Source: Eledone cirrhosa (Eukaryota). Taken from it: DNA of 64,000 bases. Shown piece after piece: positions 1 through 23,073 of this stretch (position 1 is the first letter of the stretch; every line of letters begins with the position of its first letter). The notes under the pieces are model-generated. The model did no database searches, was not told where the DNA came from, and saw only the letters and a program-made list of their open reading frames with translations. Position numbers and translations under genes: made by a program. The stretch lies in NCBI GenBank assembly GCA_964016885.1, contig OZ024754.1, positions 25,420,001-25,484,000 on the forward strand. Reading direction: 5' to 3'.

Positions 1-50
1 TACGGTGTTAAGGCAACCACGTCACCTTTTTGTTCAACACTGACACAGGA

Positions 51-93
51 ACGATGTACTAGTTTCAAGCTTGTTAGCTATCGTCAGCACCGT
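51..93 (-). ncRNA. Minimal type I hammerhead ribozyme (representative; one per satellite monomer)
   Basis: Minus strand reads ACGGTG CTGACGA T-AGCT-AACA-AGCT-T GAAA CTAGTA CATCGT. Stem I is ACGGTG/CATCGT, the core is CUGAnGA...GAAA, stem III is the palindrome ACTAGT, and the cleavage triplet is GUA. Confidence 0.9.
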
Positions 94-166
94 ATACCCT
101 TCTGCCAGATGGTTGAACGTTCGAAAGTATATACTTTCCTTATGAAAATTTACGGTTGAGCAGCTA

Positions 167-18500: not shown

Positions 18501-21500
18501 ATGGATCTCGGGAATTTTACCCGCCTTAGATATATATATATATATATATACATACAGGCACACATATATATATGTACGTATCAGTTTAGCGAACATTTAT
18601 TATAATGCTCGCTTTGTCCGTTTGTAAACAAACGGACAGCCTGATTTATGCCGTACGGTGTTAAGGCAAACACGTCACCTTTTTGTTCAACACTGACACA
18701 GGAACGATGTACTAGTTTCAAGCTTGTTAGCTATCGTCAGCACCGTATACCCTTCTGCCAGATGGTTGAACGTTCGAAAGTATATACTTTCCTTATGAAA
18801 ATTAAAGGTTGAGCAGCCTAGTTTGCATATCGAGTGAGTTCAGTCGGCCAGGCGCACGGAAAACGATAAAATGGAATAGAATGAAATGAAATTTCATTTC
18901 TGACTCTTAGTACGGCACTTACTTAAATGTAAGTATGTATGTATACGTACATACATATATGCATACAGACGTACAGTAGCATGTATATATATATATATAT
19001 ATATATATATATATATATATATATATATATATATATATATATATATATATATATATATGTATATACATACAGGCACACATATATATATATAACGTATCAG
19101 TTTAGCAAACATTTATTATAATGCTCGCTTTGTCCGTTTGTAAACAAACGGACAGCCTGGTTTATGCCGTACGGTGTTAAGCCAACCACGTCACCTTTTT
19201 GTTCAACACTGAAACAGGAACGATGTACTAGTTTCAAGTTTGTTAGCTATCGTCAGCACCGTATACCCTTCTGCCAGATCGTTGAACGTTCGAAAGTATA
19301 TACTTTCCTTATGAAAATTAACGGCTGAGCAGCCTAATTTGCATATCGAGTGAGTTCAGTCGGCCAGGTGCACCGAAAATGATAAAATGGAACAGAATGA
19401 AATGAAATTTCATTTCTCACTCTTAGTACGGCACTTACTTAAATGTAAGTATGTATGTATACGTACATACATATATGCATACAGACGTACAGTAGCATGT
19501 ATATATATATATATACATAAAGGCACACATATATATATGTACGTATCAGTTTAGCGAACATTTATTATAATGCTCGCTTTGTCCGTTTGTAAACAAACGG
19601 ACAGCCTTATTTATTTCGTACGGTGTTAAGGCAACAACGTCACCTTTATGTTCAACACTGACACAGGAACGATGTACTAGTTTCAAGCTTGTTAGCTATC
19701 GTCAGCACCGTATACCCTTCTGCCAGATGGTTGAACGTTCGAAAGTATATACTTTCCTTATGAAAATTAAAGGTTGAGCAGCCTAATTTGCATATCGAGT
19801 GAGTTCAGTCGGCCAGGCGCACCGAAAACGATAAAATGGAATAGAATGAAATGAAATGAAATTTCTGACTCTTAGTACGGCACTTACTTAAATGTAAGTA
19901 TGTATGTATACGTACATACATATATGCATACAGACGTACAGTAGCATGTATATATATATATATATATATATATATATATATATATATATATATATATATA
20001 TATATATATATATATATATATATGTATATACATACAGGCACACATATATATATATTACGTATCAGTTTAGCAAACATTTATTATAATGCTCGCTTTGTCC
20101 GTTTGTAAACAAACGGACAGCGTGATTTATGCCGTACGGTGTTAAGCCAACCACGTCACCTTTTTGTTCAACACTGAAACAGGAACGATGTACTAGTTTC
20201 AAGTTTGTTAGCTATCGTCAGCACCGTATACCCTTCTGCCAGATCGTTGAACGTTCGAAAGTATATACTTTCCTTATGAAAATTAACGGCTGAGCAGCCT
20301 AATTTGCATATCGAGTGAGTTCAGTCGGCCAGGTGCACCGAAAATGATAAAATGGAACAGAATGAAATGAAATTTCATTTCTCACTCTTAGTACGGCACT
20401 TACTTAAATGTAAGTATGTATGTATACGTACATACATATATGCATACAGACGTACAGTAGCATGTATATATATATATATACATAAAGGCACACATATATA
20501 TATGTACGTATCAGTTTAGCGAACATTTATTATAATGCTCGCTTTGTCCGTTTGTAAACAAACGGACAGCCTTATTTATTCCGTACGGTGTTAAGGCAAC
20601 AACGTCACCTTTATGTTCAACACTGACACAGGAACGATGTACTAGTTTCAAGCTTGTTAGCTATCGTCAGCACCGTATACCCTTCTGCCAGATGGTTGAA
20701 CGTTCGAAAGTATATACTTTCCTTATGAAAATTAAAGGTTGAGCAGCCTAATTTGCATATCGAGTGAGTTCAGTCGGCCAGGCGCACCGAAAACGATAAA
20801 ATGGAATAGAATGAAATGAAATGAAATTTCTGACTCTTAGTACGGCACTTACTTAAATGTAAGTATGTATGTATACGTACATACATATATGCATACAGAC
20901 GTACAGTAGCATGTATATATATATATATATATATATATATATATATATATATATATATATATATATATATATATACATACAGGCACACATATATATATAT
21001 TACGTATCAGTTTAGCGAACAGTTTAGATGCAGGATATGGCAGCGATAATGAGGGACAGAGACCGCTGGAGAGAACTCGTCCATGGATCTCGGGAATTTT
21101 ACCCGCCTTAGATATATATATATATATATATACATACAGGCACACATATATATATGTACGTATCAGTTTAGCGAACATTTATTATAATGCTCGCTTTGTC
21201 CGTTTGTAAACAAACGGACAGCCTGATTTATGCCGTACGGTGTTAAGGCAACCACGTCACCTTTTTGTTCAACACTGACACAGGAACGATGTACTAGTTT
21301 CAAGCTTGTTAGCTATCGTCAGCACCGTATACCCTTCTGCCAGATGGTTGAACGTTCGAAAGTATATACTTTCCTTATGAAAATTAAAGTGAGTTCAGTC
21401 GGCCAGGCGCACCGAAACGATAAAATGGAATAGAATGAAATGAAATGAAATTTCTGACTCTTAGTACGGCACTTACTTAAATGTAAGTATGTATGTATAC

Positions 21501-23073
21501 GTACATACATATATGCATACAGACGTACAGTAGCATGTATATATATATATATATATATATATATATATATATATATATATATATATATATATATACATAC
21601 AGGCACACATATATATATATTACGTATCAGTTTAGCGAACAGTTTAGATGCAGGATATGGCAGCGATAATGAGGGACAGAGACCGCTGGAGAGAACTCGT
21701 CCATGGATCTCGGGAATTTTACCCGCCTTAGAGATATATATATATATATATACATACAGGCACACATATATATATGTACGTATCAGTTTAGCGAACATTT
21801 ATTATAATGCTCGCTTTGTCCGTTTGTAAACAAACGGACAGCCTGATTTGTGCCGTACGGCGTTAAGGCAACCACGTCACCTTTTTGTTCAACACTGACA
21901 GAGGAACGATGTACTAGTTTCAAGCTTGTTAGCTAACGTCAGCACCGTATACCCTTCTGCCAGATGGTTGAACGTTCGAAAGTATATACTTTCCTTATGA
22001 AAATTAACGTCTGAGCAGCCTAATTTGCATATCGAGTGAGTTCAGTCGGCCAGGCGCACCGAAAACGATAGAATGGAATAGAATGAAATGAAATTTCATT
22101 CCTCACTCTTAGTACGGCACTTACTTAAATGTAAGTATGTATGTATACGTAAATACATATATGCATACAACGTACAGTAGCATGTATATATATATATATA
22201 TATATATATATATACATACAGGCACACATATATATATGTACGCATCAGTTTAGCGAACATTTATTATAATGCTCGCTTTGTCCGTTTGTAAACAAACGGA
22301 CAGCCTGATTTATGCCGTACGGTGTTAAGGCAACCACGTCACCCACTTTTTTTTTTCGTTCAACACTAACAGAGGAACGATGTACTAGTTTCAAGCTTGT
22401 TAGCTATCGTCAGCACCGTATACCATTCTGCCAGATGGTTGAACGTTCGAAAGTACATACTTTCCTTATGAAAATTAACGGCTGAGTGAGTTCAGTCGGC
22501 CAGGCGCACCGAAAACGATAAAATAGAATTGAATGAAATGAGATTTCATTTCTCACTCTTAGTACAGCACTTACTTAAATGTAAGTATGTATGTATACGT
22601 ACATACATATATGCATACAGACGTACAGTAGCATGTATATATATATATATATATATATATATATATACATACAGGCACACATATATATGTAAGTATCAGT
22701 TTAGCGAACATTTATTATAATGCTCGCTTTGTCCGTTTGTAAACAAACGGTCAGCCTGATTTATGCCGTACGGTGTTAAGGCAACCACGTCAACCTTTTG
22801 TTCAACACTGACACAAGAACGATGTACTAGTTTCAAGCTTGTTAGCTATCGTCAGCACCGTATATCCTTCTGCCAGATGGTGTGTCTTTAAACAAACATC
22901 CCGTATATATATATACAAACACACACACACACATATATATATATATATATATATATATATATATATATATATATATATATATATATATATATATATATAT
23001 ATATATATATATATTATATATATATATATATATATATATATATATATATATATATATATATATATTTATACAT

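Follow-up and report, generated by a model that had tools for sequence, protein, structure and literature searches.

The window analysed here is a stretch of 64,000 nucleotides from the 3.0-Gb genome of Eledone cirrhosa (assembly GCA_964016885.1, contig OZ024754.1; G000:C14:25,420,001-25,484,000), and it opens with a long tandem array whose units carry hammerhead ribozyme motifs on the minus strand. We propose, with a probability of roughly 0.7, that these units belong to a non-coding retrozyme with tens of thousands of copies, whose RNA would cut itself as a dimer, close into a circle and be copied into (TA)n tracts by the enzymes of Penelope-like elements (PLEs), and that the array in the window arose by later duplication of DNA. 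A preliminary description of the window had suggested a retrozyme-like element moved by PLE enzymes; selection on the ribozyme core and PLE-type insertion ends, both seen in copies scattered over the genome, make this likely. Of the whole system, the 23-kb array itself tells us the least.

Conservation of the hammerhead in scattered copies

An exact 31-nt core pattern was matched 13,525 times genome-wide (control 0), and flanking anchors outside the core were matched 27,575 times (control 1). Because both counts stand so far above their controls, the motif is not a chance string. The anchor matches also supply the genome-wide copy count proposed in the preliminary description; scattered arrays of 1 to ~11 units were seen. 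In sequencing runs, X1 yielded 6,548 contigs and X4, from another organism, a single contig at depth 8; neither result enters the argument.

Selection was assessed on the first 100 of the 27,575 anchor matches, which fall in 55 loci, 38 of them long enough to align. In the 98 copies that have the standard length, six isolated changes are all that affects the 11 catalytic positions, and 96 have a U·U at the base of stem II. Lineage-level variants, defined as those common to at least four loci, occur in 0/11 catalytic columns and 2/31 core columns compared with 83/283 columns elsewhere in the 38 loci (catalytic versus elsewhere, p=0.024; core versus elsewhere, p=0.003; both values are generous, with deleted columns counted singly). 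The comparison of core with flanks across genomic copies, put forward earlier as a test of the ribozyme, has therefore come out in its favor: the core is spared lineage-level change. Subfamilies are only 76-80% identical, yet core and stems are conserved across them.

A structure alignment was built from 53 loci and the window, with two 75-nt matches left out. The hammerhead structure is paired in 97.2% of its cells (36 distinct rows), and one stem I pair alternates between U·G (15), G·U (14), A-U (4) and C-G (1). The covariation score lies above 500/500 shuffles; double changes are found in 12 of the 78 consensus pairs, and hairpins besides the hammerhead covary too. These comparisons indicate that the catalytic core of the scattered family is under selection and that stem I covaries.

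Insertion ends of the scattered copies

Insertion ends were surveyed at 84 loci in the first 51 Mb of contig C1, two of which overlap and one of which holds a duplicated insertion, giving slight double counting. The 3' ends fall predominantly at two fixed sites about 60 nt apart, a short site (61 of 146) and a tailed site (59), and each of these 120/146 ends is followed by (TA)n. Mapped onto the first unit of the window, the sites delimit one segment:

212..279, minus strand: 'tail' segment between the two fixed 3' ends, with the short end near 272-279 and the tailed end near 212-219 (approximate; putative starts of reverse transcription)

Where arms are joined in the 84 loci, they meet head to head in 49 cases and tail to tail in 2, at scattered 5' points. 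The inverted pairs (n=50) combine their ends in a strongly non-random way, with short plus tail in 38, short plus short in 3, tail plus tail in 0 and other combinations in 9 (p=5e-9). In the published layout of PLE insertions, tandem copies are accompanied by a 5' copy in inverted orientation, and just one of the ends bears a tail (PMC8557442); for an anole PLE this layout has been explained by cuts in both strands and two internal start sites (PMC11167929). Among PLEs, (TA)n is a target of the Hydra, Neptune and Naiad types; those of the Hydra clade target (TA)n and carry DKT and CxCX5C motifs (PMC8557442). The ends of the scattered copies thus carry a PLE-type footprint, and PLE enzymes are their likely mobilizers.

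Two other candidates were set aside. The ends of the window array had suggested the internal (TA)n of the unit as a priming site; only 5/146 scattered ends lie there or are unplaceable. Locus L180 had looked like a chimera of retrozyme and PLE and is really an insertion with an 8-bp target duplication.

A chimeric insertion bounded by two (TA)n tracts is seen at L084:2,380-3,830, where a retrozyme arm with a short end leads directly into a co-oriented piece of a Hydra-like open reading frame (ORF) and from there into a different hammerhead family at its tailed end. The simplest explanation would be a template switch, but this is a single case and sits in a nested locus. At L110:5,803-7,807 there is a second hammerhead array, of an unrelated family, whose unit measures 310 bp and which also has an arm joined head to head.

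Form of the RNA template

Cut linear monomers do not appear to be the template, because their copying would gather 5' ends at the ribozyme cut site and none gathered there: we found no excess, with 63 matches compared with 54 at a control position (p=0.46), and 15 of the first 30 cut-site matches were merely point variants. Young insertions have units that are identical across both arms (7 units at L107, 4 at L086). On the ribozyme strand, locus-level changes are biased toward A>G over T>C (44 vs 18, p=0.0009), while changes private to one unit are balanced (12 vs 11). The A>G bias fits RNA editing before copying. A circular template is favored because the ribozyme is conserved and yet its cut site is read through; uncut multimers are a possible template as well.

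Predicted folding of the unit RNA

The circle is predicted to fold at -137 kcal/mol, a value that the (TA)n hairpin of the unit inflates; 40 shuffles gave -95±5 kcal/mol. The double-hammerhead fold is 8-9 kcal/mol better than two single folds, the single forms having been modeled by the program with only one stem III pair. On these models the unit RNA would likely cleave as a dimer. The axolotl variant HHR_Amex2, which has the same U·U, shows 22% cleavage as a monomer and cleaves better as a dimer (PMC7229834).

A candidate U6-like promoter

Upstream of the hammerhead, each unit has a candidate promoter, shown here for the first unit:

127..175, minus strand: U6-like promoter layout, in which a 12-mer that includes the octamer (164-175) precedes a TATA (128-133); transcription is predicted to start ~47 nt ahead of the cut

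At four of the six U6 loci that were examined, a 12-mer of the octamer type lies at -77 to -79 and a TATA at -30. The same 12-mer, within one mismatch, is found in 105/106 units, with TATA 42 nt downstream in 90; the window array contains 41 such promoter-like 12-mers. From this layout we infer a transcription start at the edge of stem I. In the genuine-looking U6 loci the octamer-type element is unusually close, at -77. The U2 and U6 genes also form tandem arrays, with units of ~2.2 kb and ~1.8 kb respectively, seen at G000:C3:307.35-307.45 Mb and C19:31.78-31.84 Mb.

Anatomy of the window array

The array and the main features of its first unit are as follows:

1..22880, minus strand: retrozyme units in tandem, of which the window contains 44 out of 63, organized as a 9-mer higher-order repeat of ~4.7 kb
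51..93, minus strand: type I hammerhead of the first unit, with a 6-bp stem I, a 4-bp stem II plus U·U, a palindromic stem III and a predicted cut between 57 and 56
32..118, minus strand: extension of stem I around the hammerhead, comprising a bulge and two distal helices (predicted structure)
283..428, minus strand: long self-complementary low-complexity hairpin, with variable (TA)n at its tip (330-399)

We found 44 type I hammerhead motifs at 1-22,880 on the minus strand and 0 on the plus strand, in agreement with the preliminary count of ~44 monomers, and the anatomy claimed for them matches the first copy exactly. Read from the sequence, stem I of this copy pairs 93-88 with 56-51 (6 bp) and is followed by CUGACGA at 87-81; stem II pairs 79-76 with 71-68 (4 bp) over a U·U at its base; GAAA lies at 66-63, the palindrome at 63-58, and the GUA has its predicted cut between 57 and 56. 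The statement that most motifs are intact amounts to 25/44 when core, stems and palindrome are counted together; the catalytic bases are kept in 40/44 and changed in 4, and stem II has a mismatch in 17. The term 'minimal' was misapplied, as a helix I of 6 bp, a helix II of 4 bp and the U·U make this a canonical form by the definitions in PMC4209133. The motif is accordingly the canonical metazoan type I, its stem II resting on a U·U, and not the PLE 'minimal' form. A rarer subfamily (L141, L189, L212-L238) has C at 10.1, with C-G or C·A replacing U·U, and a GUU site.

The array is real and larger than the >23 kb first given: it spans 33 kb and 63 units, its left edge lying ~10 kb before the window at G000:C14:25,409,776. 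The 43 complete units in the window measure 442-679 nt and have a GC content of 0.31-0.38. They contain 13 ORFs only, low-complexity and of 100-159 amino acids, which leaves the unit non-coding, and a tRNA search of the unit found none. The internal (TA)n, earlier described as a spacer, is present; it forms the tip of the predicted hairpin rather than a neutral spacer, and is not the usual priming site.

Growth of the window array

Three further features bear on the history of the array:

441..533, plus strand: inserted 3' end of a long interspersed nuclear element (LINE), in 11/43 units, with a target duplication of ~48 nt (read by eye; a script search gave none)
22881..22906, minus strand: 26-nt piece of a different subfamily at the array 5' end (24/26 match, vs 16/26 to the window type)
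23070..23266, plus strand: remnant of an inverted head-to-head arm; the same arm is a 28-unit array in the paralogue, C14:25.12-25.134 Mb

Unit identity peaks at lag 9 (0.986) and lag 18 (0.979) compared with 0.957 at lag 1, and because of these peaks we describe the array as a 9-mer higher-order repeat. The inserted LINE has a source copy carrying RVT_1 (E=8e-33). Two markers trace the fate of the array: the LINE junction has 22 genome matches and a stem-II-damaged array variant has 18, all of them at the window array or its paralogue, which lies 300 kb away and holds the same array with 20 units plus the 28-unit inverted arm. Core and flanks do not differ in variability within the array (7/32 vs 72/411 variable columns, p=0.48). 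At its left end, 10 kb before the window, the array joins at a TA run a copy of the upstream region of the PLE found at 47,064-50,708.

The window array was built by DNA duplication after insertion, and as far as the two markers tell it is likely a dead end, showing no sign of seeding new copies. The view of it as an active unit is at odds with its 9-mer growth as DNA, with a core that is not spared and with the absence elsewhere of the two array variants. The locus shows a retrozyme insertion becoming an ordinary higher-order satellite, with selection on the ribozyme lost. The surrounding region, G000:C14:25.04-25.44 Mb, is a ~400-kb segmentally duplicated region holding retrozyme arrays, with unit counts of 2, 2, 9, 9, 9, 70 and 63 in one copy and 1, 2, 2, 2, 2, 2, 41, 20 and 28 in the other.

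PLEs and other elements in the window

The window contains PLE ORFs of 683 and 705 amino acids, the former within a complete insertion:

50,865-54,245, minus strand (ORF): Hydra-like PLE, complete two-arm insertion with a 683-aa 5'-truncated ORF, TA-flanked, with short and tailed ends

The 683-aa ORF (51,929-53,980) has the DKT and CxCX5C motifs. It is represented by 91 scored genome copies of 84-100% identity, many with open frames, and its protein by 1,073 homologues. The insertion has a sense hammerhead with a long stem II at 50,956, where its short end lies at (TA)n, and an inverted arm with a hammerhead at 54,075 and a tail of ~75 nt. Its build parallels that of the retrozyme insertions, with two arms, short plus tail, and TA flanks. 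An apparent antisense orientation of its hammerhead relative to the ORF was an artefact of the inverted arm; in 29/30 loci the hammerhead lies downstream of the ORF, in sense orientation.

When the unit was compared by nhmmer with the remainder of the window, with a 17-kb spacer and with 30 loci of Hydra-like elements, only one incidental neighbour was returned. The earlier proposal that the adjacent PLE reverse transcriptases (RTs) copy the units back is not borne out, the neighbouring PLEs sharing no detectable sequence with the unit.

Further Hydra-like RT/GIY-YIG ORFs or fragments lie at 39,975-42,092, 28,621-29,889, 29,856-30,749, 34,604-35,161 and 35,329-35,808; they represent several families, some joined head to head. 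Pfam gave nothing for seven of eight window ORFs and a sub-threshold RVT_1 match for one. The broken PLE at 47,064-50,708 belongs to another clade, which we take from its motifs to be Neptune- or Poseidon-like; it has a 455-aa ORF upstream and a weak RVT_1 match. The 273-aa ORF at 58,949-59,770 (+), without a Pfam match, is presumably the C-terminal fragment of a CR1/L2-type LINE ORF, and we assume a short interspersed nuclear element near 28,290-28,370. Other type I hammerhead candidates are found at 37,773 (+), 38,588 (+), 38,793 (+), 38,726 (-), 56,148 (+) and 62,545 (-); these are unrelated families, several with a long stem II and a palindromic stem III.

Proposed mechanism and alternatives

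In the mechanism that we propose, transcription would be driven by the U6-like octamer and TATA inside the unit, start shortly ahead of the hammerhead and run on through tandem units. Cleavage by the double hammerhead would free monomers for a host ligase to circularize, as has been shown for the axolotl and mussel retrozymes. The RT/endonuclease of a PLE, probably one of the Hydra clade with its preference for (TA)n, would nick both strands of a (TA)n tract, and priming at two fixed RNA sites ~60 nt apart would allow copying round the template for one to ~10 units. The two complementary DNA arms would then be joined at random 5' points, giving a head-to-head pair in which one end is short and the other tailed. 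At the present locus, as the array itself documents, a LINE fragment and damaging variants were fixed in the 9-mer, the 9-mer was expanded and the region was segmentally duplicated. A bolder version, to which we would give clearly less than an even chance, makes the family a self-sufficient RNA parasite of Hydra-clade PLEs, with its own U6-type promoter, a double-hammerhead circle, A-to-I editing, rolling reverse transcription from two fixed sites into both (TA)n strands, an enzyme that reads RNA structure and not shared sequence, and template switching as in L084.

Several results weigh against the proposed mechanism. On the side of transcription, the octamer-TATA spacing is 42 nt in the units and 46-48 nt in U6 genes, and the upstream DNA of five U2 loci gave no octamer/TATA match above shuffles. 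Runs of T4-T7 in the units would stop RNA polymerase III, which speaks against simple read-through by that enzyme. On the side of the ribozyme, a check with hammerhead covariance models had been proposed: the Rfam models gave no hammerhead match at the gathering score, and at E<=10 the region 1-1300 gave 85 matches, none of them a hammerhead. Taken alone, the motif (83 nt) does not outscore shuffled sequences in folding (z -1.0), which we count against it. The free dimer fold has a closed core and is predicted to be inactive (stem III probability 0), and lies ~6 kcal/mol below the active double-hammerhead form. The count of doubly changed pairs fails to beat shuffles (298/500), and the covariation may come from few events. 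Two precedents point the same way, since 8/9 Xenopus retrozyme dimers were without cleavage in vitro (bioRxiv 10.64898/2026.07.22.740005) and the hammerhead of the anole PLE is dispensable for insertion in vitro, where uncut RNA is the main substrate (PMC11167929). As for copying, the older array at L095 is heterogeneous (5.5%), and on the ribozyme strand G>A also exceeds C>T (53 vs 39), so that polarizing errors are possible. The retrozyme tail of ~60 nt is longer than the published 30-40 bp, and no homology to pseudo-long terminal repeats (pLTRs) was detected with the window PLEs or with 30 copies of one Hydra-like family.

Some of these points are accommodated by a scheme in which PLE enzymes copy linear, mostly uncut multimers, the hammerhead being an inherited pLTR feature that cuts rarely and the circle being unneeded. 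The missing 5' ends at the cut are just as compatible with uncut RNA, which the anole PLE uses in vitro (PMC11167929); the predicted free fold is inactive, and some arrays are heterogeneous (L095, L185). We nevertheless consider this scheme unlikely, given that core and stems are conserved across subfamilies of 76-80% identity and that variants private to an insertion are common to all of its units (both arms at L107, one arm at L110).

It is still less probable that the window array is itself transcribed, self-processed to monomers or circles of 450-680 nt and copied back by the adjacent PLE RTs. Neither of the two array-specific markers has scattered copies, core selection is absent inside the array, and the adjacent PLEs share no sequence with the unit, both merely targeting (TA)n; against this stand the 25/44 intact ribozymes, the 41 promoter-like 12-mers within one mismatch and the two long ORFs of the window PLEs (683 and 705 aa). 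An ordinary satellite that spread by DNA mechanisms and bears a chance or dead hammerhead-like string would account for the absent Rfam match and for an array that grew at the DNA level. It is contradicted by the fixed two-site 3' ends, the random 5' truncation and the (TA)n targeting, as well as by the strand-biased A>G changes and the conserved core of the scattered copies, and we regard it as scarcely credible. Circular RNA copied by PLE enzymes, followed here by DNA duplication, remains the reading that we prefer.

Comparison with known systems

A hammerhead satellite with an internal small nuclear RNA-type promoter upstream of the ribozyme is known from newt satellite 2. Unlike in that satellite, the layout here resembles the U6 genes of the same genome (octamer plus TATA) and not its U2 genes.

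At the level of its sequence, the family is a metazoan non-long-terminal-repeat (non-LTR) retrozyme as the accessible text of Cervera and de la Pena 2020 (PMC7229834) defines the class. It resembles these retrozymes, especially axolotl HHR_Amex2, in its tandem non-coding low-GC units with one type I hammerhead each; it shares with HHR_Amex2 a 2-bp stem III and the U·U at the base of stem II, and with the class its tens of thousands of copies and PLEs as proposed helpers. Its units are longer than theirs (442-679 vs 170-400 nt) and have a (TA)n hairpin, and cleavage and circles, which were shown for those retrozymes, are predicted here. The available account in PMC7229834 offers LINEs or PLEs as candidates for moving retrozymes and leaves the question open; fixed ends, tails, inverted arms and (TA)n targeting do not figure in it.

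Vertebrate retrozymes (Li, Clavereau, Pollet; bioRxiv 10.64898/2026.07.22.740005) are likewise non-autonomous partners of PLEs, and form long arrays of up to 300 units through local growth after insertion, there by unequal crossover. In the accessible part of that preprint, which names no mollusc and states that its own life-cycle evidence is limited, the link to PLEs consists of co-occurrence and pLTR homology, whereas here it consists of insertion ends and a homologous pLTR was not found among the PLEs compared.

The present insertions share 5' truncation, tandem copies, an inverted 5' arm, a tail on one side only, insertion into (TA)n, two internal start sites and cuts in both strands with endonuclease-containing (EN+) Hydra-clade PLEs (Craig et al. 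2021, PMC8557442) and anole Poseidon (PMC11167929). They differ from those PLEs in a unit without an ORF, in undetected pLTR homology and in tail length (~60 nt vs 30-40 bp). Like the minimal hammerheads of PLEs (Cervera and de la Pena 2014, PMC4209133), the ribozyme is of type I, has a palindromic stem III region and is expected to act as a dimer; the PLE forms have a helix II of 7-8 bp, a helix I of 4-5 bp and G10.1-C11.1, compared with 4 bp, 6 bp and U·U here.

Searches of literature listings, supplements and repeat databases excluded, found no description of the present family or of PLE-type ends in retrozymes. The class to which the family belongs is a known one, and the valuable part is the set of insertion ends, which bear on how it is mobilized. 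They point to PLE-type machinery, two copying-start positions and a target, alongside a candidate promoter. Since the ends give the machinery, the start positions and the target, mobilization of the family should be testable in vitro, as has been done for the anole PLE.

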